64,000 nt of DNA, taken from assembly GCA_965178125.1 (NCBI GenBank), contig OZ237741.1, positions 1,240,001 to 1,304,000 of the forward strand, in the 5' to 3' direction. The translations under genes and the position numbers were made by a program. Positions 1 through 40,100 of the stretch are shown piece by piece. The stretch comes from Bilabrum cf. latius (taxonomy: Eukaryota). Every line of letters begins with the position of its first letter. Position 1 is the first letter of the stretch. The notes beneath the pieces are model-generated. The model was not told the DNA's origin. It ran no database searches and was given only the letters and a program-made list of their open reading frames with translations.

Positions 1-1233
1 GCGTCTGCGTGCGCAGCTTTGGCTGCTGCTACTGGTGCTGTTGGTGCTGCTGCAGCTGATGCCGACGTGTCACTTTCCTCACATTCAGGCATTTTGTCGT
101 GCATCTGTCCGTTCTCCTCCTTGACATCCCCCTTGCCGCTCCCGTTGGCTGCACCCCCTGTCTTGCTACTGCCTGCATCCCCGACCTTGCCCCCCCTCTC
201 CCTTTCTCTCTACCCAACCTCTAGTATCACTCCACTGTGGCCCGTGACAGCATCAAGCTGCCTCTGCAGCCTCGCCACCTCGTGCAGTGCACCCACCAGC
301 TGGGCCTGCGCGGCCTCCGCCTCTCCCCTAGCCGATTGTACCAGCCTTTCCTGTCTCCGCCTCGCCTTTTCACTGGCCTGCGCGTTGCTTTCCCACGCCT
401 CTGTGGCAGCCAGGAGCAGCCGCAGGGTCTGCATGCGCCACGCTTCCTGCCTGTGCCTGTCGCCCATCGCTGTCGCTGCATAGTGTAAGATGCAGGAGTA
501 ACCACTAGGCTTGAGAAAGTACCGAGATAAGCAGGAGTAAACTACAAAAGACAAAGAGGCCATACATACGCGAAAAAGGCAAACACAGATCACATGGTGG
601 TTGCAGGCAGAACACGCGCGGGGCATCAAAGGCCTACCAGTGCCAGTGGTACTGCGCATCATGATCCAGTGGCCTGGTCTCACCGATGGTCTCCCTCGAG
701 AGCTGCATGCACAGAGCGCGGACACCCTGGGTCCACTGCATGGCACGGTCGTGCATCGCTGTGCTTCCCGAGCCAGCCGACGATTGCGAGGCTCTGGAGA
801 CAGCTGAGTAGCTGGGATGGGCTGGAGCTCCAGCTGGTGGGAGCTACGGTGGCACGGGTGGCGTGCTGCCAGTGGCAGTGCCGCCAACTTGCGGCTGCTG
901 GACCTCTTTACGGTATCGTCTGCCTGCCTGCCCCATTCCAAGCATTGGATTCACGTGCAACTTTTCCATTCTACCCGCCTGCGGACTTGAGGACCTTGAG
1001 GCCGAGTGGCTGGGTCCTGGAGATGGCAAGTTGCTTGGTGGGGCGGACGATGCTACAAAGTCGCCCGAAGCACGCCTGCGGCGATTGAGTGGCCTATCAA
1101 TCTTCATGTTGGGACGATCCGCACCAAGGTGTGCCGCTTCCATAGCCCTAGTCCTAGCAGTCCTCTCGTGAGTCTTCCGAGCACGCAAAGCACCCGTCTA
1201 CACATCTGATTTTCCTCTCGAATGCTGCATCAT
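1..1233 (-). CDS. Hypothetical low-complexity/coiled-coil protein, 3' end runs off the window
   Basis: ATG at 1233. The frame is open through TAG at 1198 and 844. A phase-1 intron (donor GTGAGA at 683 or GTATGT at 569, acceptor TGCAG at 476) joins a coiled-coil-like frame (EKARRRQERLVQSARGEAEAAQAQL) that reads through TAG 210 to the window edge. Confidence 0.55.
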
Positions 1234-1420
1234 TCTTGTTAGCCGACGCTATAGTGAGTGAAGAGATGTATCACTGGGGGTTTCCATCAAAAGAAATTCT
1301 GCGTAGCACAGGTAGGGGCTAAGATTTTCGCATTTGCTGATGTTATATAACCGCACGCAACCATATACCTGCGAAATACGGATTCACATCTCATCACAAA
1401 GCTGTCAACCTTATTGCCTA
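1234..1420. promoter_or_regulatory. Short bidirectional promoter region
   Basis: 187-bp AT-richer gap between divergent ATGs at 1233(-) and 1421(+). Confidence 0.45.
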
Positions 1421-1849
1421 ATGGCATCCATACTTCGCAGAATAGCTTCACGGTGTCCTAGACAGCCACTAAAGGTAACCCGGTGGTCATGCCGCTGCAT
1501 CACCACATAGACGCCAGGTGAGCTGCATCTACCTGGAGTTGCAGCGAACGGGGACTACTTATCTGTGACAGTCCGAGTAAAGCCACGCTCGTCTTGTTCT
1601 AGAGTTTCAATAAATGATGCGCTTGGAGTTATTGATATTTGTGTAAAAGAGGAACCCGTGCGGAACAGGGCCAATGATGCCGTGATGAAAGCAGTTGCTC
1701 GTCTGTGCGGCGTGCCAAAGGAGGACGTTGTCTTGATGAGGGGAGCATCGTGTAGGATCAAAACTTTTCGTGTAAATCAGGATCCTGATCGGTGTATCAA
1801 GAAGATCGCCAGCAAGCTGAAGGGAAGAGACAGCCTTTCTAGAATTTGA
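1421..1849 (+). CDS. DUF167/YggU (UPF0235)-like protein with Arg-rich transit-peptide-like leader
   Basis: Unspliced frame from ATG 1421 through TAG 1508 gives LSVTVRVKPRSS...IDICVKEEPVRNRANDAVMKAVARLCGVPKEDVVLMRGASCRIKTF, matching the YggU pattern (V.VKP...PP..G.AN..L...LA..L.VPKS.V.I..G..SR.K). Stop TGA 1847-1849. Confidence 0.7.
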
Positions 1850-2572
1850 GCAGCAAACCGTGCACCGCAAACTTGGGTTCGTATCGCAGCCAACGACATC
1901 AAATTGAATCAGCTTTTGCAGCATGACGACAAGCTTTGGGTGGTAAGACTTGATTGGAGGGGTGTTTTTTCTGCCTTCGCGTGGTCTTCATCCCCAAATG
2001 CATGAACCAAGCAAGCGAGAGCGTACCCCTTCCTGATCGCACAGGTGCGCAAGAGGGAACATGTTAAGCCAGGTAAGGGAGGGGCGTACGTATAGCTAGA
2101 GCTGCAGTCCCTGCGCGGCGACACGAAGACGAACCAGCGGGTCCGCTCCACGGAGACTCTCTCCACGGTCGAGTACGACCAGCGAGCCACATATACGGTC
2201 CTGTACCAAGAGGACCCGGGGGGCGGCATGGACCCCGTCGTGGTGCTCATGCACGAGGAGACCTTCGAGCAGGTGGAGGTGCCCGGGTCCCTGTTTGGAG
2301 GGGACGGTGCGCACCGTTTCGCGCACGACGGGATGCCTGTGATCCTTGGTACGCACGAGGGCGAGGTGGTGCACGTGGACATGCCCAAGATTGGAGAGTA
2401 CGAGGTGGATTTTGCCCCCGAGGTGAGGTCAGACACGAGGGATAAGCAGCCCACCAGGCAGGTCCGGCTGTAGAACGGTGTGACGATTGCCAGGGTCCCG
2501 GCTCACGTGGTGAAGGGAGACAGGGTGCGGATCCACATCGAGGAGAGGAGGTTCGTGGAAAAAGTCAAGTGA
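1421..2572 (+). CDS. efp: Elongation factor P (bacterial/alphaproteobacterial type), probably mitochondrion-targeted; predicted exons 1421-1517, 1854-1942, 2045-2572
   Basis: Spliced product reads RIAANDIKLNQLLQHDDKLWV|VRKREHVKPGKGGAYV[TAG]LELQSL...EETFEQVEV...RQVRL[TAG]NGVTIARVPAHVVKGDRVRIHIEERRFVEKVK-TGA, which carries the EF-P PGKG loop and C-terminal OB-fold motifs. Intron 1943-2044 is GTAAGA..CACAG. The first exon/intron (AG|GTGAGC 1518 to CAG 1853) is inferred. The N-terminus is Arg-rich and lacks acidic residues. Confidence 0.85.
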
Positions 2573-2630
2573 AGGACGGGAGATCTAGAATCTAGAATCG
2601 AATGGTACCAGCGAATGTTAGTGGACTCCT

Positions 2631-2748
2631 TGGAGGAGAGCAGGGAGGCGACAGGTGCAGTGGTCTCTGTGTGTGCCGGGGCAATCCAGTGGAGGAGAGC
2701 AGGGAGGCGACAGGTGCAGTGGTCTCTGTGTGTGCCGGGGGAATCCAG
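2631..2748 (+). repeat. Two tandem 59-bp copies downstream of the EF-P stop
   Basis: TGGAGGAGAGCAGGGAGGCGACAGGTGCAGTGGTCTCTGTGTGTGCCGGGG(C/G)AATCCAG at 2631 and 2690, one mismatch. Confidence 0.95.
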
Positions 2749-3330
2749 CTGCCCCCATCTCGGCACTCATTAATGCACGCCCCCGTATGCCTCACCCGTA
2801 AATGGTCGCGCACTGCATCAGAAGCTTTCGCTCTGGTGTATACCTTGCTGAGTCTGTGGCCGTACCGTGGGGCTTGTGGCGTTGGATGGGACGAACGAAC
2901 GAACATGGCCGGTGTGAGCCTGGATCGGCAGGAGTGGACCACGGGTATCCAATGTATAGCAGGACGGTATGGCTCGTTTCAACCAGCCATGCAACTCGCT
3001 TCCAGCAAGCGAATCGCTGGCTGCCAGCCGGTGGGTGTGTATGCTCGGCTGGAATCGAAGCACATTGCTCGCAAACCAGCCATAATAGGTTGGCATCGTT
3101 GGTTTCATGACTAAAGGTCCGCAGCTCTGCTCGTCGTTGGCATTCCTAGGGGCAGGCCGCCTGATGCAGGCCGTGACCACTCCACCGCGGGCCGAAAAAA
3201 GCCGGAAGAGCGTAGCTCGTTGCGTCAACACTCCAAGAAAACAAGTACTCGGCCCTCCGAAGGCAAATCAACTGTTGTAGGCCAATAATTACGCTTCTAT
3301 TGTGGGAAGAATTAGAATTTCGCACTTACC

Positions 3331-6300
3331 ATGCGACGTGACAGACTGCTGAAGAGGAGTAGAGCCAGAAGCGCTGGGCGTGCAATGGCAGAATCCCGGT
3401 CCCCTCGCGGAATCGCTGCATCTTTGAGGAAGCCAGACGCCAAGAGCGACCGCCTCCACGATGTTGACCATCTCCATAGCATTGTCTTGTATTTGCAAGA
3501 AAGTAAACGTGATTTGGAGGAGCAGCTTCGCAAGAGCAACGAGAGAGGCGACGCAGCTGAGACACGCGCCAGCGAAGCTGATGCAAAGCGGGAAGCCATT
3601 GAAGAGCGCTTGTAGTCGTCTCAAGCCCGCGAGTTGTCTCTGAAAGCGGAAATGCAGGTTAGTTGGGTAATGGAGCAACGTGCGTGCGCTGCAAGGTGTC
3701 AAACGGCAACACAGCTTGACACGCGCACTGTTTGCTATTTAAGGCGCACTATCAATCTTTGTTCGCAGGAGTTACGTTCTGTGCATGATAAAACGTTGTT
3801 CGAGCTGCACCGATAGCTAGGACAGTTGTAGACTGAGCGAGATGAGCTTGCATCGCGATATGAACAAGCAAGTTCATCACAGTCACAGAAAGCCACTACC
3901 ACAGCGCAGTAAGGAGTCCATTGGGCATCGATCTTATTTTACCACCACTCGATTTCAGCGAAGGGGCGCCGCATGTGCCTCTACCTTTCCGTATTCCGCA
4001 GGTTGGAGCAGGAGCGCAAGGTTCTGCTGGCATACGCAGCCGACTTAGAGGAGCAGATTGACGCTTCGCAGCAGAACCAGGTTCAATATGAGCGAAACAC
4101 TGGGGTTTTGCGCATGATGCAGGTGCTGCTGAAGCAGCATCAGGCCGCGGGCAGGGCGGCTCTAAACCGGTGGCGCAGCTTTGCCCTCCATGGTCAGGCC
4201 GGTGACGCATCGCAGCGGGCGCAGCAGGAGCTCGCCAATGCGCAACGCGAGTTGGAATCGAGTAGAAGGAATCTAATTGCTTCCTAGGCTCGCATTTAGT
4301 CGCTGGAAAAGCGCCTGCAGGACGCGAGAGCCCAGCTTGCAGACGCTGACCTCCGTGCAGGACGAGCAGAAGCAGACGCGAGTTCAACAAGACACCGCAT
4401 GCAGGAGGCGGTGTTGACGGCGAGCCGCATGAAGCAAACGCTACGAAATGCAAGCGAGCTTGCCCAGTCTCTGTCTCCCAAGGCAGCAGCGATGTCCGCC
4501 TCTGTGCGACTGGACGCACCCGCCAGCGGTCGCACACCTCTGGTTCGCTCTAGGCTCTCTGCATCGTCCAGCAGCACAGGCAGCGCTTCTAATGCTGATT
4601 TAGAGATGATTGCAGGCGGTACAACCCGAAGTTTGGCGGCGGCGCTGGGCAGGGACGGTGCTGGCGACGATTCAGAGAATGTCCGCGTGGCTGCCGGCCA
4701 GAGTGATCCCGCTCCAACCGCACGCGTAACTGCGCCGTCTCCAACACGATGGGCCGGCGGCGGGTCCGCGCTGGCCGTGCGTTCCAATGGAGAAGCAGCG
4801 CGCTCGCCTGTGGGGGGAGGCCGTGCATTTTCTCCCGCCGCTACGCCAGTGCCCGCAACCAACCATGCACACGACGCCACTGCCGGTGAGCCCATCAGCC
4901 TCGAAGCTGTCGCCACAAGCCTGGCAGAATCCCTCAGCGGAGAGCAAGCGAGGGCAGAAGCGGCGCGAATCGCGCTGCAGGATGCCCGCACCCTCGCTGA
5001 AGAGGCACAGCGCGAGGCACGGCGCTGGAGAGACGCGCACGACCGCAAGGAGATGGCGCTTGCCCGCAGCGAGGCGTCCTTCGAGAAATCGTCGGACGCG
5101 CAGACCTCTCTCCTGCGAGTGCTTGCTGTCCTAAGGGACACGCTGCCCCAGGGGCGCGCCGAGATCGACTCGGCGATTCAGGCCGCGGCGGTGGTGGCCA
5201 AAGACGTGGCAGAGGCAGAGGCGGAGAGGGACGATACGGCAGGCGCCGCTGGGGCGACCGGGAGCACGAGCACCGACGGCAAGGGGAAGTCCTCCGAACC
5301 AGAGCCCCCCAAATCCGGCCTGCAGCTGCTCGAGGAGCTGGCCCGAGGTGCCACGAAGGTGCAGCAGGTCAGGTCCACCCACGGCGCGCGCATGGCGGCC
5401 GAGCTGCGGCACAGGCTTACAGAGTGCCGCGAGGATCTGGCCGCGGCGAGGGAGGCGGAGGATCGCGTGGTCAAGGCCAGGGGGTCGATCCAGGCCGCGC
5501 TCCAGCGGGCGCAGGACCGCGCGGATGCATCGGACCGCCGCGCCCGCCGGCTGGAGGAGGAGGCGGAGGGGCTGCGCGTGCGGTCCCAGGGGCTCGAGGA
5601 AGAGCTACAGGCGAGGGAGGACGCGCTGCGCTTGCTTGAGGAGCGCGCTGAGGAGGCAGACAGGAACGTGCAGGCGCTGCAGCAGGCCGCGAGGGCAAGG
5701 TCTCTGCAGGAGGGCGCGGCCGAGTCGAGGGCAGACAGGCTGGAGGCGGAGCTTGTGGCCGAGCGGGCCATGCGAGGCGCGGGGTCCGACGGTGCATCGC
5801 GAGAAGGCGGGGCTGCGGCGGGGTCGGATGATGCGCGAGTCCATGCAGCGGTGCAGTCGGCGGCCGTGGCGCGCGCAGAGCTGGACGAGCTGCGCGCGAA
5901 ATCAGCCCTGCTAGAGCAGCAGGCGCGATCGGCCGAGCGGGAGAGAGATCAGGCTTAGTCCAGGCTGAAGTCGGTTCGGTCCGAACTGGAGGAGGCGAGG
6001 CGCCAGGGGCAAGAGCGCCTGGAGGCGGTCCGTGGAGACCTCGCGGATGCGGAGGCAAAGGCAGACGAGGCCAAGGCCGTGGCGGCGGGTGCTCGGCACT
6101 CGCTGCAGGTGGAGAGGCGGGCTCGGGTATCCGCCGAGGAGGAGGCGGAGGGTGCCATGCAGCAGGCTAGAGAGGAAGTGGCGCTGGAGATGGAGACCCG
6201 CGCGGAGGAAGCCGAGCTGCGGGCCAAGCAGGCGGAGCGAAGGGCGAGCCAGGCCCAGGACAAGGCCCATGCACTGAAGGAGCAGCTGTCGAACGCCAAA

Positions 6301-9300
6301 AAAGAGGTGGATGACGTGGTGCAGGCGCTGGAGGAGGAGGTGCAGGACGCTGCAGGGGAACGGGACGAAGCCATCGAGCAAGTTAAGCAAGCAGACGAGG
6401 CCAGGGACGAAGCTGTGCGAGAGGCGCGGCAAGCAGAAGAGCTGCTGGCACAGGCTCGCAAGGAGTTGGAGCAGCAGGCACTGGTTCGCGGTGAGGCCGA
6501 GGACTCTTTAAAGAGGGCCAAGAAGGAGCTCAATGATGCGCAGGCGCAGCTGCAGGCCAAGCGCACCGAGGCCGAGGAGCTGTCGAGCACCGCCAAAGAG
6601 CTCAGGGCCGCGGTGGAGGCAGCCGAGGCGCGGGCCGTGGCAGCTGGCCGCGAGGTGGAAGAGCTTCAGGAACGCGCGGCAAGGCTCGATACCGAAGCTA
6701 AGAGCAGCCGCAAGGAGCTCGAGTCCGAGCACGAGGCTCTGGAAGCGGCCCGCGCTCAGCTGCAAGAGGCCAAGGACGATGCCGGCGCGACCCGCAGCGT
6801 GTGCGATGAGGCTGTGGCGGAGCAGCACAGGCTCGAGGAGGTGGTTTTCTAGCTGAAGGAGCAGGTAGAGGCGCTGCAGAAGCAGGTCAAGGACCAGAGC
6901 GAGGCGGCCTTGCAGGAAGCAGATGCGGCGCAGAGCGGCAAGGCTTCGAGTCCTTTGGGCGGCGCTGCCCTGCAGGATGCGGAGGAACGGCTGGAGGCGG
7001 CTCGAGAGCAGCTGGACACAGCCAGACAAGCAGCGAGAGAGGCCGAGGACCGGGCGCAGCAGGCCACTTCGAGGGCCACCGACCTGCAGGCACAGCTATT
7101 CGCGAGATCCTCCGAGGTGGAGGACCTGAAGCAGCGCCTGCAGACAGAGCAGGAGGACAGGGCCGCCACGGTGGTGGCTGCTGCCAGCGCGCGCGCCGCC
7201 GAGCAGGAGAGTCGGGAGGCGATCGACAGGGCGGAGCAGGCCCTCCGCTCCGAGCTGCGGAGGAGAGCAGAAGCGATGCAGCGGCTGGGGAGGCAGCACA
7301 CCGCAGACGTCTGGCTCGCGCCGCAGCCGATGCCGGGACCCGCAGCTGGTGGTGAAAGCAGCGGCGACCGAGACGCTCCCAGCAGCAGCGGAAGGGACGG
7401 CATCGAGCTGTCGGACGCCGCGCCGCACGAAGACCCGAAGCAAGACGATGCCGCTGCTCGCAGTCGTGCGGAGGCTGATTCCGAAGAGCAGCGACTGCTG
7501 CAAGCAGCTCGGCTCATGGCAGACGCTCAGTCCGGCCCCGCCGCGGCCTCGCACGCCGCCGTGGTCGGCTTCCTCACCACTACCATCCAGACTGGCACCA
7601 AAGACCTGGCCGAGGCACGACAGGCTGGCGCGCGCCTGCAGCGGACCGAGCTCGATCTCCGCCGCCGAGTGCAGTTCCTGGAGACGAGGCAGACCGAGCT
7701 GCAGGCGCACCTCGCCATGGCGATGAAGGAGGTGAGTCAGCTCCAGGGAACAGTGGGGGACTGGAAGGCGCGTGCGGGCAGGGTGGCGGTCGCGATGCTG
7801 CCCGCGGCGCGCGCAGCGGCTCAGGCGGCCGAGGGCATGGCCGAGCGGGCGGTCGCGCTCTCCTCTCCGAGGTCGCAGGGGAGCCAGGCCAGCAGCAGCG
7901 GCGATGGTATGGGCGGCCCGCACACCCCCGATCGATCGGGCAGGCACCCCGGGTCCGACTTGTCGGGTGCGTCCCCGCGGGCCCGTCGCATGGCGGCACA
8001 CGCGCAGGAGGTGCGGTACTGCGTGCAGCAGATGTCGCGCTGGGCGCAGCAGTCAAAGGTGGAGGTATCGGCGGCGGTGTCCTCGGGAGATGAGGCGATG
8101 CTGCAGCTCGACCGCACGGAGCTTGAGGGCACGCCCGGCCTGCTGCTGGCAGAGTCCCGGGGTCGCGCCAGGCACGCCCAAGACGCGTTGGAGCTGTGCG
8201 AGGTCACGGTGCGGGCCATGCAGGACGAGCTGTCGCTGGCGAGAGCCGAGGTCACAAGGCTGACGGAGGACGCGGTGGCCCGGGCCAACCAGGCCAACGA
8301 GCTCCACGCGAGGCTGCGGGATGCGGAGGGTGCCTCCGAGGCGCAAAGGCTGCTGGCGGTGGGTCTGCGGGGACACGCGCAGACCCTCCGGTCGCTGGTG
8401 CCGGAACGAGTGCGGCCGCACCTGCCCCCCAGCCCCCAGCTGCGGCCGCTGGCTGCTTCCCACGCCGAGGCTCTAGAGCAGGCCAGGGAACAAGACAGAG
8501 ATGCGGAGTGCGATGGGCCGGATGACCTGGGCGGAGAAGGGGCCGATGGCAGCCGCAGCACAGCTGCGAGTGGGCGTCAAGCCGGGGGCGAGGGCGAGGG
8601 GGAGGGGGAGGAGGAGGAGGGGGCCACCTTGAGCACTGAGAATTTCTAGCGACCGAGCCATGGGCAGCGCGCGGCAAAGCAGCTGAGCGGTGCATGGGCA
8701 TCTGTGCTGGCCCCTGCGGCAGGCGCGGATGCCTCCCCATCGGCCCCTAGTGCAGCCGCTGACCGGGAGAGCCTGGGCACACCCGCCTCCAACAGCTCTA
8801 CGCCGAGTCGGGCCGCTCCGATTGTGCCCGACGCGATCGACGGCGTGCAGGCTGAGGATCGGGGTCACGGGGCGCAGGAGGAGGACGAGGACGGGGAGTA
8901 GGAGGAAATTCTGGAGCTGGGCCAAGAGCTGGCCCGAAGGATGGGCCCCGAGTAGAGTCACCATGAGGCGGCGAGCGACCGAGGAAGCCGAGCGTTGCCC
9001 GCCTATGGATCCCCTGAATCAGGAATCGCCTACTCACAGCAGCAGCAGCAGCAGCAGCAGCGTGGTGACGAGGACGAGACCGCGCACAATAGGCCAGTCG
9101 TGGCCAGCACGCCTGGCAGGACGCCACGACTCGAATCCCCCGCTGATACGCCGCAATCAGCCATCGTGACAGAGCCAGTGCTAGGCCCGGTTCCACCAGC
9201 CGGTAGGGCAGGGACCGGGACGGGGACAGAGGCTGCGGCCATCGGTCACCAGGACGACGACGTCTCAAGCGGTGACTAGCGGATAATTGATCATGGTGTG

Positions 9301-10221
9301 CGCGCAAGGCTGCCCCTTGCACGCGATTCAACGGACACATGGAGCTCTGACAGTACGACAGATTCAATTTCCGCCCCCGGGGTCAACTCGGGGTCGGGAT
9401 CGGGATCAGGGTCAGGATCGGGGCCCACCCCTGGCTCCACTGGGCAGGAGTCCCCTCCCGAGGCTCCCGTGCGGGTGGCTCTGCCGGCGCTGGATACCGC
9501 GAGCGGTTCTGGTTCTGGTTCTGGCTCTAGTTCTGGCTTCAGCAACAGAGGGTCGGGCTCTGGGCATGGCCGGGCATCGTTATTGTCGACAGCCACTGCA
9601 GCAGCGCCGGAGCCTCGCAGCATCCTGAGAGGCTCCCCTAGCTTCATCGCCTAGCGGCAGCAGCAGATAGGCAAGCAGGGGCTCGGCCAGACGCTGCAGT
9701 CTCCACGGAGCCAAGACGGCAAGGAGCACGAGTGGCCAGATGATTCTGAATATGGGGCTGCCAGCGGCTCGGTGGGGGCTGCGCGGCGGCGGGTGAAGTT
9801 CGACGCTGCTGTGCTCCATGCGGCACAGGACAAGGAGCGGACGGAGACAGAGCTCAATTTCATTAGGATCGAGCGGGAGCAGGAGGAGCAAGAGGAGGGG
9901 GCGCGAGCTGGGCAAGAGCAGTACCGAGGGAAAGGCCAATGGCAAGGGCATGGAAACCACGACTCGGACGCGGAGGGCATCAGCGGGGAGGGGCTGGTGG
10001 AGCTGCTGCAGGGGCTCGACACCGAGGCGGTGCAGCAGCTGCAGGAAGCCGTGCGGGGCAGCGCCGGATCCGGGGATGGTGGAGAGGGGGCGAGTGGCGT
10101 GGATGTGGAGCAGCTGCTCGAGCGAGTGTACGCTTCCATTCGGAGTGCGGGTGGCTCGGGCGAGCGGGAGGAGGGGGAGGGCCTGTTACAGGGCCAGGCC
10201 AAGGCCGAGGGTCCTGGGTGA
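3331..10221 (+). CDS. Giant (~2200 aa) coiled-coil protein; predicted introns 3658-3768 and 3909-4001
   Basis: All E/A/R/Q-rich ORF pieces from 3331 to 10221 lie in one frame. They are separated only by TAG (3613, 3814, 3829, 4285, 4297, 5956, 6850, 8647, 8899, 8953, 9277, 9652). Exon 4002-10221 has no TAA/TGA until the terminal TGA. Start may be 3331 or 3385. Confidence 0.85.
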
Positions 10222-15386: not shown

Positions 15387-15894
15387 TTTTAGATATGTAC
15401 TTGATCTAACTGCGAAGTGAGAACGAAACAATGCAAATCAAGCCGAAGGGTGCCGGCAAACGGCGGGAGCGACTTGGCGTGCACGCTGTGGAGCCACCTC
15501 CTAGCTCTCCAAACCAGACACGCTGGTGCTAGTCGGAACAAGCCGATAGATAATCAAGTATAATAAACAACAGCGAAGTTATAGCATCGATGGGGCACGA
15601 ACTCACGCACACCACTTCTGGAACGGTCCTCTGGTCAATGGTTGGTGTTTGATCCGATCTTCTCCGAACGAACGTTCACCGTGATTGTAATTATGTTAAA
15701 ATGGCCGAATTTAGACAGAAACCTCCTTGCTTTGACTACTTTACAGTGCTGCTGTGTCAATTGGGGCACCCGGATCTTCTCTGGTCGCAGTGCACATGTA
15801 GAAGCATCCATACGGGCGCACCACAATCAATGCATCTTCGGCACTTAAACATTCCACGTTTAGCGAAGTTGAACCGTACGGTTTAGCACGAGTA

Positions 15895-18800
15895 TTAATG
15901 TTGAGTGTGGCCAGCCTGATGCTTAGCAGCCCGGTACCACCACCGCCATATTTCAAATCCGGGTGCTAGGTCGATCCAGGCGCCTTCCGCCGGCTCAGGC
16001 TACGACTGGTGTACGTGCCACGATGCCGTCCAAAGTGTGCCCTTGTCTCCTGCATCCGCGCCCTTCGTATGAAGCAGATCTCCCCATGATGGCACTGGAC
16101 TTCCTACTCGAATGCCCATGCGCCCTTCTGCGGCGCACTCTGATCGAATACACGCGGCCCAGCGGCTCACCAGCAGTGCATATGTGGGGGCAAGCAGCTG
16201 CTCCAATGACTCGGGGAGACTGACAGTATTACTTCTGCACCGGGTCCCTCGAGACGACCGCCGGAGCGCGGCAGAGACGCCAGCCGCACCCGTCCAGCCT
16301 AGCCCGGCCAGATCCTGTGCCCTCCCCCCCGAGCCATTGCCATTGCCAGCGGGGGGTTCCTCCCCATCCTCGGGCTGGCAGTGGCCATCATGATCGCCGC
16401 ATGCGGCACGGCACTCGATCTCTGCGACCGCCTGTTCCCGCTGCAGTGCAATGCGCCACTCAGCCGGGCCCCATCCCAAACCCGACCCCTCCGCTGACCC
16501 ATCCCCTGTGCCCTCCCCATCATCCCCCCGCCCATGACGCGCGGGCGCGGGCACGGGCGAGCGCGAGGGCGAGGGCGGGACCCACCCCCGCGCGCTCGTC
16601 CTCGCGTCATTCTAGTGTGTGAGGGACACACCCAGGAGGGCGCAGGGCCAGGAGGTCGCAACCCGCCGACCGGCTCTAGGCACGCCCACTCCGATGCTGG
16701 CGCACGCCTGCCCCAGCCATGACCGAGCCGGTGGCGCGACCATGACCATACCAGCCGTACCACCCCCATCCTATGTGTCTCCTGGGCTCGCGGTCCCGCG
16801 TGCAAGCACCCCGGCCTCGTGCGCGAGCTGCCTCAGCCCGGCCCCAAGCGCGTCCACGCACCACGCGGAAGCCCCGCCGGTTGCAGCCACACCCGCCGAG
16901 CCCAGCACCCTGGGCCTGTCCACCTGCAGCAGAAGCGGGGGGCTGCTAGATCTATCGCCGCTGACATCATGATGGTGACCCGCGCAGCCGCTCCCGATCG
17001 CTGCCAGCACCACCCTGCGAGCCGCATCCAGCGGCTCCACAACCTCCTGCTTGGCTGCTTGCAGCGCTGCAGTGGGCTGCAGTCCAACGGCCGGTGCACA
17101 CGCGCCCAGCCCCAGCGAAGAAGGAACCACCACGATCGCTTGCAGCTGCAGTGTCACCTGGTCTGGCGAAGGGCTCAGTCCCCCGGCAACCAGACTGGCA
17201 AAAGCTGCTTCCAATGCTCCCTGCTGCTGCTGCTGCTGCTGCTGCAGTCTGCCTACCTGCAAGCCTGCAGCCCCGCCCGCACCACCACTGGAGGTCCTGC
17301 CCCCCGTGTCCCCACCAAGGGGTACCCACCTGATACGGCCGCTCCCCGGTGCATTGCTCACGCCAGCGGAGGCCAGAGCTCTCCTGAGGGCAGTCGGCAG
17401 CACTGAACCCGATGCATGCGGCTTGCTCTTCTCTGCAGCATCGCTGCTCGCCGCCGACGCACCCACGGGCAGCGTCCCCGCACCAGAGTCCTCCTGCCCG
17501 ACCTGTGCCGAGCCCAAGCCATCGTCATCCAGCGCGTCATACTCGTCCATCCCAAGCATCAAGCCTGGCCCTGGCCCAGGCAACTGCTCCGCTCCCTTGC
17601 TCGCCTCGTTCTGCTAACTGCTGCTCCTACTAGCAGGGGCAGTCCCTGAACCTGACGCGGTGCCGGGACCAGCGACGTCCCGAGAGCACACGAGCACCCG
17701 TAATCGGCCCGTGCGGTCTCCGGCCAGCAGACCCGCGCACGCGCTTGCGGCAGGGGCCCCGCCTCCAATCACCACGGCGATGCCAGCCACCGCTCCTTCC
17801 TCTCCTGGCCCCCGCCCTCGCTGTACCCCCACGTCCTTGCCCCTGCCACCATGCCGCAGCCTAGATGTAACGGTCACACTGCGGAAGGTGCGGCGAGCGC
17901 TCCCCATGCAGGTCTGCCACAGGCGCAGGCAGATCCACACCATGAGACCGCCAGCGACGAACGCGGCCAGAGCCAAAGGCGCAGCTGAGACAAGCCCTTG
18001 GCTGTCGCCAGGTAGCTTTAACCAGCCCTTGCTGTGGGGAACATTATCCCCGAGAGAGGCGCCCTGGCTGCCATTACCCGCCTCCTAGCAGGCCTGCATG
18101 CCGGGTCCGGGTTCTGCTCGCATGGCCACTCTCACCAATTGGTCGATACTCTCTTGGGCCGGAAGCATGTGTTGCTCTGCCAGACTATCCAAGCTAGCAA
18201 AGTTGCTGTCATCGTCAGATCGATCGACAGGAGAGGCAAATACCGCCGACTAGTTCCCTGCGGTGTCGCGCTCAGCTTTGGAAACCAAATCCGCATGCTC
18301 CTCCCCTTCGCTGTCTAGCTCCTCCAAGGCATGCCCCCCCACTTCGCTGTCTTGCTCCTCCAAGGCATGCTCCTCCCCTTCGCTGTCTTGCTCCTCCAAG
18401 GCATGCTCCTCCCCTTCGCTGTCTAGCTCCTCCAAGGCATGCTCCTCCCCTTCGCTGTCTAGCTCCTCCAAGGCATGCTCCCCCCCTTCGCTGTCTTGCT
18501 CCTCCAAGGCATGCTCCTCCCCTTCGCTGTCTTGCTCCTCCAAGGCATGCTCCTCCCCTTCGCTGTCTTGCTCCTCCAAGGCATGCTCCTCCCCTTCGCT
18601 GTCTTGCTCCTCCAAGGCATGCTCCTCCCCTTCGCTGTCTTGCTCCTCCAAGGCATGCTCCTCCCCTTCGCTGTCTTGCTCCTCCAAGGCATGCTCCTCC
18701 CCTTCGCTGTCTTGCTCCTCCAAGGCATGCTCCTCCCCTTCGCTGTCTTGCTCCTCCAAGGCATGCTCCTCCCCTTCGCTGTCTTGCTCCTCCAAGGTAT

Positions 18801-19485
18801 GCTCCTCCCCATCGCCCTCATGCTGTTCTTGTGTCCGCTCCTCCCCCTCGCTCGGATCCACTGGCACCCCCTCTGCGTGCTGCTCTTGTGCCCGCTCCTC
18901 CCCCTCGCTCGGATCCACTGGCACCCCCTCTGCGTGCTGCTCTCCACCAGAGGTACTCTGCTCGGCATCGCTGCTCACTCTATCAATACCGTCCATTAAA
19001 GTTCCACCGTTGGGGGCATTCTCGTCTATTCCGAACTGATCCTCAACCACTAGACTATCTACCCCGTTCTCTGCTCCTGGTAGTTGCCCTAGCTTGCCCG
19101 ATGTGTCGTGCTCTTTCGGCTGGTCTTCGCGTACCAAAGTGACTCGACGCGGCGTCCTTCCCCACTCTTTGACCTGATCTAGAGATACCTTGCGATCAAC
19201 GTCGACTAGCGGAGGCTGCACATTGGTCGAATCTGCCACAGAGGAGCTGACGGCTCCGCGAGAGGCTTGCTGCAGCGGGGGTTCTTTTTCTGCAAATTGT
19301 TCCTCTGCTGCGGCTGGTATTGGCTTAGTCCCAGTCTAAGGTGGTGGCTCCTTAAGAATTTGCTGCTCCTTGAGATCTCTCTTTCGTTTCGCCTCCTACG
19401 CTCTCACCAAGTGGCGCTGCCGAATCGCTTCGTTTCGAAGCTGAGCTACCCTTCTAGCCGCAGCTCTAGCGTTTCTACGTGGCAT
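15895..19485 (-). CDS. Hypothetical ~1200-aa protein with an acidic tandem-repeat region and one predicted transmembrane helix
   Basis: Single frame from ATG 19485 to TAA 15895, broken only by TAG (19396, 19336, 18250, 18085, 17614, 16771, 16612, 16000). Hydrophobic segment LALAAFVAGGLMVWICLRLW near 17920-17976. Confidence 0.75.
18293..18950 (-). repeat. Coding 36-bp tandem repeat x14 (EEHALEEQDSEG) plus a 60-bp duplication (EQHAEGVPVDPSEGEER[A/T]Q)
   Basis: Unit GCATGCTCCTCCCCTTCGCTGTCTTGCTCCTCCAAG repeated 18293-~18810; two 60-bp copies at ~18825-18945. Confidence 0.95.
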
Positions 19486-19622
19486 ACACAACCAAACTGT
19501 TAGACAGAATATGGCATCCAAGGCTGCATTGATTGTCAAATGGGCATGGATGGGTCTTTTGTTTCTCGGAATTCGGAACCAGAAACATCACCAAGACTGT
19601 CATTCATTATCGCTCAGATAGA

Positions 19623-37150: not shown

Positions 37151-40100
37151 TTAACCGACCCGGCGAAATCGTGCGAACTTTCGTTAGGTTCGGTCGCGAA
37201 ATTTCGTAAGGTTCGCTTTTGACTTTAGAAATCTGCTGTTCTGTTGCGTATTTGATTACAATTAAACTGTAGTACATATATTTGTATAGTTATGCATCTA
37301 TCAAAGAAGTACTAGGTCCGCATATAGTACAGATGATGAGATCTGAGGTGCCCAAAATATTGCCTCCTCGGTCCAGCTGATGCTCGATCGCGTGCGGGTC
37401 GTCATCTGCAGTCTCGGCGAAGAACTATGATATCTGTACACAAGATGCTTCCCTTCCCCTAATTAAATTGCAATTATATACATAAGATACTTAATCATTG
37501 ATTACACTGCATTATAGTTCCAATACTGCATTTAAGTAGTATCTACAACGCCTCCTTCCGGCGGCCCCTGATTCTGCTGGGCCTATCTTTATGTACTGAA
37601 TACAAAAATGCGTCCGCCGATTTTCATTCCATACACTACCCACGTATACCACATATTATGATTTATATACTGTATCCTTTAAAAGCTCTGCGTGATTATG
37701 GTTTTGCAGAAATCGTCAATAGTGTGGTCTTTGGGCAGGGTGGCCTAGCCGATCTACGAATATAATGTTCAGGCCCACAAAAGAATAGTGCAAATCTTTC
37801 AGCTTCCCGCTAACCCTAATATTAAATACTTATATGGTAAATATACGATTTGGATATTCAAAGTATAATTTACGTTAAAATGTGCAGCGGTATCAAGAGA
37901 ACTACCTCGTGCGCTAAGATCTGTAAATCTTTGTTTCACTGACCACATTAGATCCAGTCAGATTTTTTATTACCAAATTCTGATATTTGTTCTATATACA
38001 TTGCCAATTAATTCAAGAGATTGGCGCAGAAAGCGTCAATTACTCTAGTAAGTGCAATTTTTGGTGGTCCAGTCGAGCCGTACTCGTGACAACTGCCTGG
38101 GGCTATGCATCGCAGTCTTCACCAACGAGTGTCCCTAGTAGCACCATCACCTTACAAGATCATTTATAATAGATGTACATCTAGTAGACACGAGTCATGA
38201 CTTCAAATATTATGTTTGTATTGAATTATGTGACGAAGCTCCGACCTGCACAAATGGTGCTCAAAAAGCAGCTCTAGGTATACAGAAGGACTTTTGAGAC
38301 TGATAATCGCCCATGTATATTTTTAATGATAGTATATAGGGTATACTAGGACCAAACCGAAATAAATGGTCGTGATTATGCCAAACTGCAAGATTTTGAG
38401 CCGAAGCCTCAACCGGCGTGGAGCAATTGCATCCTAATAGCTATCCTAAATCGAGTCAATTATCCTTCGTAAGCTACAGACTAGTGTATATATTCATATT
38501 CTATTGATATAGGAAGTTTGCCTTGAATTGACATCGGTTTGATTGTCTGCAGTGTTGAATGTGCAATTTCCGTGACCACTCTGCAGCAAGGAAGCCTAGC
38601 CCATGCAATAATAATAAAGTGGTACTTCAGGGCGCTAACCAACTTCATTTAACATTCATGTATTAGTTGGTGGGCCCAAAGTATGGTTTACGTCGAATAC
38701 GAACGATATGTTCACGTCAACAACAATGCATCGAGTATGTGTCCAACGCGACACAGACAAGACTGCTTAGGGCTCATCTGCATGATCCACAGTGATGATA
38801 TGAACAAAGTAATGCTTGAATAAGGACAATATAGTAGTTATTATTATTGTTAAACCATTGTATACCCTTTCGATACAACGAACGAGTCTATGTCGAACGT
38901 GCACTACCGCGGGTGCGCCACGACCTCGAAATCCTGCTCAACTCCACGCAGCATCTACTTGATCTTTCCCTACCTACGAGTAGCATAAGGTAATACCATC
39001 CATGCAATTGATTATTTATTAGCCATTTAATCCATGTAGGGCACCGTATTGTTAGATTCGTTACTATTCGAGATATAATCGATATGATTTGGAGGCACCT
39101 CCGAGTCTCGCTCAGCATCAAACTAGAATCTGCTATACAGCTGCAAGTCTGTGCTTCAAGGCATGACTTATGCTACAAATGTTAGTCCCATTACAGTAAC
39201 AAGCATATATTAATAGTAGTCGTGCTTACTTTGGGATTAAATCAGCCATGAACAAGCTACTGAAGGACTCCCAACTTAGGCACCGGTTCGACTTGCTCGG
39301 AAACCCGATCAAGTCAGAGCAACAGTTGTGCTTCCTTACACTACAAAAAGCCGTGTACGCTTGAAGTTACTGCATTTAACACGTAGATAATAAGGTATAA
39401 CATGTATTCTGGCAAGTTAACTTTTTGTTTAGGCTTTACATGGCAAGCATGGTATGCTGAAGGCTGGTGCGTCGTCGACTCTGTCAGCCTCCAACCGAAA
39501 CTTGTCCTGACTTCTACGCTCCATTCTAGCCTTCAAGAATAAAAATTGACTAATGCGTTACAACCATCTGTATAATATCCACATATTTAGCAATGCGCTA
39601 AGATAATACCGTTCTCTTTTGTTTATTTTGCTTGATTCTGCCAGGTTGTCACTACACAATCGGCAAGTAGCTAGGTAGGGGTCAGTTGACTGGAGTTTAT
39701 AATCCATCCTCGCCAGTTTTGTGGCCATAAAATAATGTATATTGGAGTATATGGCGTGATTGTAGTGCGCATTCATTGAAAAATTATGTATAGCTTGAGC
39801 CATGCTGCGTTCATGTCAAGAGCGTGATTCGGCCAATTTAAAGTCAAATCATAACCAGCGCATAATTTGATGTAGCCATAAAATAGAGGCACGTCAAGTT
39901 GAATTATAGTTGCCACAACTGCGAATAATACATTAAGATTACGGGTTGATCAATTTGATTTATGCTGGCTACTAAGGAGAATGCTATAGACGCGCAGCCT
40001 CGGACACCAGTGCCACGCGAACCTGGTCAGAGCGCATGTATTGGCAGATTTAAATGCAATATTGCAGTCCCCGGCAGTTAAGCTACATTTTACATCAACA

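Follow-up and report, generated by a model that had tools for sequence, protein, structure and literature searches.

One start codon and one 32-residue leader may serve two mitochondrial proteins: elongation factor P (EF-P) and a DUF167/YggU protein with its coding region inside an intron of the same gene. The arriving EF-P would have taken over the promoter, the start codon and the presequence of a resident gene, which survived. We rate the chances of this reading as just short of even. One part of it is observed: in contigs of three public sequencing runs from two studies, splicing links the leader exon with the exons of EF-P and skips the nested DUF167 open reading frame (ORF), and the EF-P isoform (leader plus EF-P) is well supported. 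Whether the gene is a dual-product one, in which splicing gives leader plus EF-P and retention of intron 1 would give an inferred leader plus DUF167, is an evenly balanced question.

Contigs of four public runs, X1 and X2 (study P1), X3 (study P2) and X4, were compared with positions 1100-3000 of the window, i.e. the whole 64,000-nt stretch of DNA that was analysed. The features of the locus are listed below in window coordinates.

1409..1420, + strand: minimal 5′ untranslated region (UTR); contigs start at 1409 (X1), 1410 (X2) and 1415 (X3), with no loose end, and X4 extends further
1421..1517, + strand: exon 1; 32 leader codons and the first base of codon 33, with one TAG (glutamine) at codon 30
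1518..1889, + strand: intron 1; 372 nt, GT..AG, frame-preserving, absent from the EF-P message
1517..1849, + strand: DUF167/YggU ORF; 110 codons plus TGA (1847-1849), an in-frame continuation of exon 1
1850..1889, + strand: last 40 nt of intron 1, from the DUF167 stop to the acceptor; EF-P frame open
1890..1942, + strand: exon 2; 53 nt that encode the N-terminal strand(s) of the KOW domain in EF-P, contig pieces at 1887-1941 in X1-X3
1943..2044, + strand: intron 2; 102 nt, GT..AG, within the KOW domain, raw contig joint 1941>2044 (cut +1) in X1-X3
2045..2572, + strand: exon 3; the rest of EF-P, comprising the KOW loop with PGKG, the OB domain and the C-terminal domain, with TGA at 2570-2572 and two TAG (glutamine)
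2573..2748, + strand: 3′ UTR; contig pieces reach 2660, breaking at a repeat

The window derives from a eukaryotic nuclear genome and is rich in G+C, mostly at 0.52-0.70. The neighbouring genes in it are ordinary eukaryotic ones: ALG11, an L10P/Mrt4-like protein, PP2C, GH3, GH116 and Myb. The genetic code is non-standard, in that the long frames of the window often hold in-frame TAG, and occasionally TAA, and end at TGA. At residue 67 of the spliced EF-P, a TAG codon aligns with glutamine in all six of the relatives that cover that column. The locus is a single nuclear gene of a host that reads TAG as glutamine; TAA is probably read as glutamine as well.

With TAG read in this way, the frame that opens at ATG 1421 runs unbroken to the TGA at 1847-1849 and would encode a product of 142 aa. 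A Pfam search with that product placed DUF167 at residues 47-118, with an E value of 1.6e-17. The score against PF02594 was 64.8 bits, versus a cut-off of 30.9 (E value 8.1e-18), and the match extended over profile positions 2-75 of 76 without any major gap, 72 residues being aligned to 74 profile positions. Conserved columns were taken from an alignment of 67 sequences, all 67 of which match PF02594. The nested ORF keeps each of the seven: A52, G76 and K82, which are invariant, and P23, P47, N53 and R80, which are nearly so. Across six random splits the ORF surpassed 25-30 of 33 held-out relatives, placing it above their median, in a comparison biased by the selection of those relatives for their likeness to the ORF. 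The AlphaFold (AF2) model of the domain has a pLDDT of 92.4 and a pTM of 0.83. Its best Foldseek match is UPF0235 protein PF1765 (9vyq_A; E value 8.1e-8, TMt 0.83); YggU (1n91) is matched as well (E value 1.3e-6), and 30 of 30 matches in the ESM Atlas are DUF167. Within intron 1, the DUF167 frame contains one TGA, its own stop, and the other two frames contain six and five. Judged from its sequence, the ORF looks like an intact, working-looking member of its family.

The nested ORF depends on the leader for its start codon. Only two in-frame Met codons are present in it, both deep in the domain, and none is situated at the N-terminus of the domain. It could be translated only from ATG 1421, in a message in which intron 1 is retained. 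No contig retaining intron 1 is listed in X1, X2 or X3; contigs drop rare variants, so this result means only that the retained form is not abundant in those runs. The production of leader plus DUF167 by intron retention stays plausible, because the ORF is intact and family-typical, follows the leader without a break in the same frame, and lacks its own start. A message of this kind would stop 93 nt upstream of the 1942|2045 junction and would have a long 3′ part. In many eukaryotes, messages that stop ahead of a junction and carry a long 3′ part are degraded.

The principal competing explanation is that the gene has a single product. Only leader plus EF-P would be made, and the DUF167 ORF would be an untranslated, undecayed remnant of the gene whose promoter and leader EF-P took. 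We regard this as a substantial possibility, although one clearly below an even chance. The contigs of the three runs show the spliced form only, a retained message would be a likely target for decay, and open frames persist longer with TGA as the sole stop. A gene call corresponding to the leader-plus-DUF167 ORF was also absent from a collection of 5.8 billion proteins. The G+C content at third codon positions (GC3) bears on both readings. That of the ORF is 0.455, which is noncoding-like, versus 0.817 for EF-P exon 3, and 0 of 384 coding windows of 110 codons each have so low a value (minimum 0.509), these windows deriving from the seven long ORFs that passed a period-3 filter among approximately 37 ORFs of at least 400 codons. 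Drift sufficient to lower GC3 to a noncoding level should, however, have harmed the protein too, and no sign of decay is apparent in it: internal TGA codons number 0, versus 5-6 in the other frames, and the uninterrupted Pfam match, the full set of conserved residues, the above-median score and the confidently predicted fold all stand against a remnant. The combination of a low GC3 with an undamaged protein would point to long constraint at the level of the protein, in an isoform that is weakly expressed, or to a need for intron-likeness, rather than to recent death.

The library records of the runs carry no RNA label, and X1-X3 were taken as RNA from the joints in their contigs. X1, X2 and X3 each have one contig with the joints 1517|1890 and 1942|2045, both with GT..AG ends and with no other letters, and each of these contigs crosses both joints unbroken. 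In the raw contigs, the joint for intron 1 appears as 1514>1887, skipping 372 nt (cut +3). The joined contigs of X1-X3 were read as mRNA. It is very unlikely that the joined form is instead DNA, derived from a processed copy without introns that organisms A and B would carry. No run is recorded as RNA, and X1 is marked 'probably DNA', but the GT..AG ends on both skipped parts argue against a DNA copy, as do three further results. The fraction of sampled words that were present was 0.41-0.50 in X1, X2 and X3, versus 0.98 in four DNA-like runs. The contigs of X1-X3 start within 7 nt of one another, just upstream of the ATG. Finally, X4, which is DNA-like, covers the stretch in unspliced form and lacks the joined form. 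The contig starts also provide a weak hint that transcription begins just upstream of the ATG, giving a very short 5′ UTR. Positions 1304-1408 are uncovered in X1-X3, with no contig across them, and this gap was not counted as evidence.

These data permit the original prediction for the locus, which was made from the sequence, to be refined. The donor proposed there for intron 1, AG|GTGAGC at 1518, is the one used in the contigs of all three runs. The acceptor with which it was paired, the CAG at 1851-1853, is unused; the contigs use the AG at 1888-1889, 36 nt downstream. As predicted, the intron is a multiple of three in length and contains DUF167 together with its stop, but it measures 372 nt rather than 336 nt. 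EF-P had been placed a few codons past the DUF167 TGA, and it does indeed lie in the same frame without an ATG of its own, but 12-13 codons that had been counted as part of EF-P are intronic. The second intron, at 1943-2044 in the KOW domain, was missing from that model. The proposal that splicing would yield leader plus EF-P is supported by one contig in each of the three runs (two studies).

The spliced frame (1421-1517, 1890-1942 and 2045-2572) comprises 678 nt and encodes 225 aa; it has a single stop, and TAG occurs in it three times. The product starts with the 32-residue basic leader and passes directly into a full-length EF-P of the bacterial type, since exon 1 meets exon 2 at what is residue 4-5 in the bacterial protein. 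Pfam matches above the cut-offs were obtained for EFP_N (profile positions 22-58 in exon 3), EFP and Elong-fact-P_C, in the frame that is shared with the DUF167 ORF. A profile built from the listed EF-P relatives aligned over positions 2-186 of 186, with exon 2 included, and scored 140 bits. The lysine of the PGKG loop, residue 61 of the spliced product, aligns with lysine in all six of the relatives that cover the column. PMC8550323 ascribes a role in EF-P to the conserved basic residue that the KOW loop carries at its tip (K34 in E. coli; PGKG).

The same frame and contigs bear on two further arrangements. A DUF167-EF-P fusion, formed through a short TGA-removing intron (e.g. 1794-1853), through UGA readthrough or through recoding, would be compatible with the common frame of the two domains and with the 40 open nucleotides past the TGA, and it is nonetheless most improbable. 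The contigs join 1517 to 1890, omitting all of DUF167, with no other joint listed, and the TGA that closes EF-P comes exactly after the last position of the family profile, 186 of 186. Of 423 candidates obtained when EF-P relatives of more than 305 aa were sought, none was significant, which is weak evidence. The 1794-1853 intron, which the original prediction had offered as an alternative, is thus unsupported by the contig joints; UGA readthrough, offered alongside it, is likewise unsupported, as the contigs skip DUF167 and no long fused relatives were found. Two independent genes, DUF167 having its own message and EF-P being transcribed from a start inside 1520-1889, are no more probable than a fusion, since beyond the general possibility of internal promoters they must contend with an exon 1 that is joined to the EF-P exons in three of three runs, an EF-P without an in-frame ATG before its middle, and the lack of loose ends suggestive of a spliced leader. 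From 1850 onward, no in-frame ATG of EF-P's own occurs until the Met of '...GGGMDP...', which is far inside EF-P, and no loose contig ends hinting at a spliced leader were seen at the locus in X1-X3. An EF-P start inside 1520-1850, the observation that had been named in advance as contradicting a shared leader, is not supported, exon 1 being joined in all three runs.

The leader contains seven basic residues (R+K), no acidic residues (D+E) and seven Ser/Thr among its 32 positions. Its N-terminus is amphipathic, with a hydrophobic moment that peaks at 0.83 for residues 4-14. These crude measures fit a presequence-like, mitochondrial leader, as had been suggested from the sequence, and a plastid transit peptide is also possible. 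It is very likely that the predicted leader-plus-EF-P product is imported into an organelle, and the organelle receiving it is most likely the mitochondrion.

EF-P relatives numbered 342 at an E value of 1e-3 or lower. Two of them are close: P0002, a sequence of 114 aa with 97 % identity, and P0001, with 69 % identity, on a contig of 1892 bp. The bacterial-looking relatives listed (P0005 onward) have identities of 26-37 %. Organism names were attached to some of the 120 EF-P matches listed, and these comprised nine alphaproteobacterial (Bartonella, Jiella and Consotaella), one acidobacterial and two actinobacterial entries; none of the organism-named matches among the 120 listed was cyanobacterial. 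The presence of alphaproteobacterial names, and the absence of cyanobacterial ones, weakly suggests a mitochondrial rather than a plastid ancestry for EF-P. A metagenome scan starting from P0001 found at least 14 EF-P loci, all of them distant (22-33 %) and bacterial-looking. As a separate observation, the relatives P0003 and P0004 (39-40 % identity) look eukaryotic, because P0003 contains, directly behind the PGKG loop, an insert that resembles a translated intron. Leader-bearing EF-P genes with introns may, accordingly, be commoner among protists.

Relatives of the DUF167 ORF are more remote. A search of 1.84 billion representative sequences gave 343 at an E value of 1e-3 or lower, the best being only 50 % identical, and none in that set reached 1e-10. 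A word-based homologue search with leader plus DUF167 gave 37 candidates, none at an E value of 0.001 or lower. A genome scan starting from the closest DUF167 relative, P0121, yielded four loci, all bacterial, one of which (L015) is an ordinary bacterial DUF167 gene. The two sets of loci were also inspected for the possibility that the arrangement is the relic of an operon, with DUF167 beside efp in bacteria. DUF167 was found at 0 of 14 EF-P loci and EF-P at 0 of 4 DUF167 loci within the flanks available, a small sample with uneven flanks that lends no support to an operon relic.

The origin of the shared leader may be considered in the light of where the EF-P homology begins. The alignment to the EF-P profile starts at the Ile codon 1883-1885 (profile position 2), which is inside the end of intron 1, and almost the whole original EF-P frame is therefore situated approximately 30 nt past the DUF167 stop. 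This placement points to the arrival of EF-P as an entire coding region downstream of an already resident leader-plus-DUF167 gene. The ancestral gene would have been a single exon encoding leader plus DUF167, and a complete EF-P coding region would have been inserted approximately 30 nt past its stop. EF-P would have gained expression and targeting by means of a donor at the boundary between leader and domain and an acceptor at its own N-terminus. In the present gene, the three-exon main message encodes the 225-aa EF-P, which would relieve the stalling of organellar ribosomes, relief of stalling at polyproline being the activity that characterizes bacterial-type EF-P. If intron 1 were left unspliced, the same ATG would give the 142-aa leader plus DUF167. 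Two unrelated bacterial-type proteins would, in this manner, have a promoter, a start codon and a targeting leader in common.

If both products are made, the locus illustrates presequence capture in a compact, natural form: a gene of bacterial ancestry gains nuclear expression and targeting by splicing onto its neighbour's leader, and that neighbour persists within the intron so created. The locus would also point to an organellar role for the DUF167 family. The DUF167/YggU/UPF0235 proteins, which include E. coli YggU, P. furiosus PF1765 and human C15orf40, resemble the nested ORF in their Pfam match, conserved residues and predicted fold; they differ from it in that the ORF has an N-terminal leader in common with another protein and is located in an intron. 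Human C15orf40 appears in a list of conserved mitochondrial proteins (PMC5814406), which makes a leader-bearing DUF167 protein sensible.

Genes in which two proteins share a leader are of a known but rare kind. At the cholinergic locus, the VAChT coding region is nested in the first intron of ChAT and the promoter is shared; unlike the locus described here, that one has no common coding leader, and its products are functionally linked. The only documented shared-leader cases found in the literature were grass rps14/sdh2 and the Plasmodium genes for stromal processing peptidase (SPP) and ALAD, and no closer case emerged when the literature was searched for intron retention combined with a shared transit peptide. 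According to the account in PMC1543663 (citing Kubo 1999 PNAS and Figueroa 1999 Plant J), rps14 of rice, maize and wheat lies in an intron of sdh2 (SDHB), with one promoter, one targeting peptide and alternative splicing. As described there, the arrangement is similar in that a bacterial-type organellar protein is found inside an intron of the gene for another organellar protein. It differs in that both grass isoforms are reported as experimentally shown, whereas only the EF-P isoform has been seen here, and in that rps14 is reached by a splice, whereas the nested DUF167 ORF is contiguous with exon 1 and so requires non-splicing rather than a splice. The partners are also different, being DUF167 and EF-P in the present case. 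In Plasmodium, leader exons are common to ALAD and SPP (PMC6381282, citing van Dooren 2002). As summarized in that source, two unrelated proteins share exons for an N-terminal organelle-targeting domain, as is proposed here; the leaders described are bipartite apicoplast ones, and the genes are adjacent with alternative downstream exons, rather than one domain lying wholly in the first intron of the other.

EF-P in mitochondria is barely documented. Plasmodium PF3D7_0913400 has been proposed as a mitochondrial EF-P and is said to lack the C-terminal OB domain (PMC8550323). On that account, a eukaryotic, organelle-directed copy of EF-P is proposed in both cases, and the window EF-P differs in keeping all three domains. 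It resembles bacterial EF-P in its KOW-like N domain, the basic residue of the PGKG loop and the OB domain, at identities of only 26-37 %, and its function here is a predicted one. No paper naming both DUF167 and 'elongation factor P' was found in the literature search. The locus provides transcript-level backing for a complete, leader-bearing EF-P in a eukaryote.

Several minor features were also observed. A 59-nt tandem duplication is present in the EF-P 3′ UTR (2631-2689 and 2690-2748, 98 % identity), and the contigs of all four runs break there. Elsewhere in the window, an open frame of 2102 codons at 3913-10221 (+ strand), which has no Pfam match at an E value of 1e-5 or lower, is rich in Ala, Glu, Arg and Gln, is coiled-coil-like and contains nine TAG codons. 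A long open frame at 15760-19587 (- strand), with no Pfam match, contains approximately 18 tandem units, which are acidic, 12 residues in length and EEHALEEQDSEG-like. The G+C content of the window drops to 0.41 at 38001-40000.
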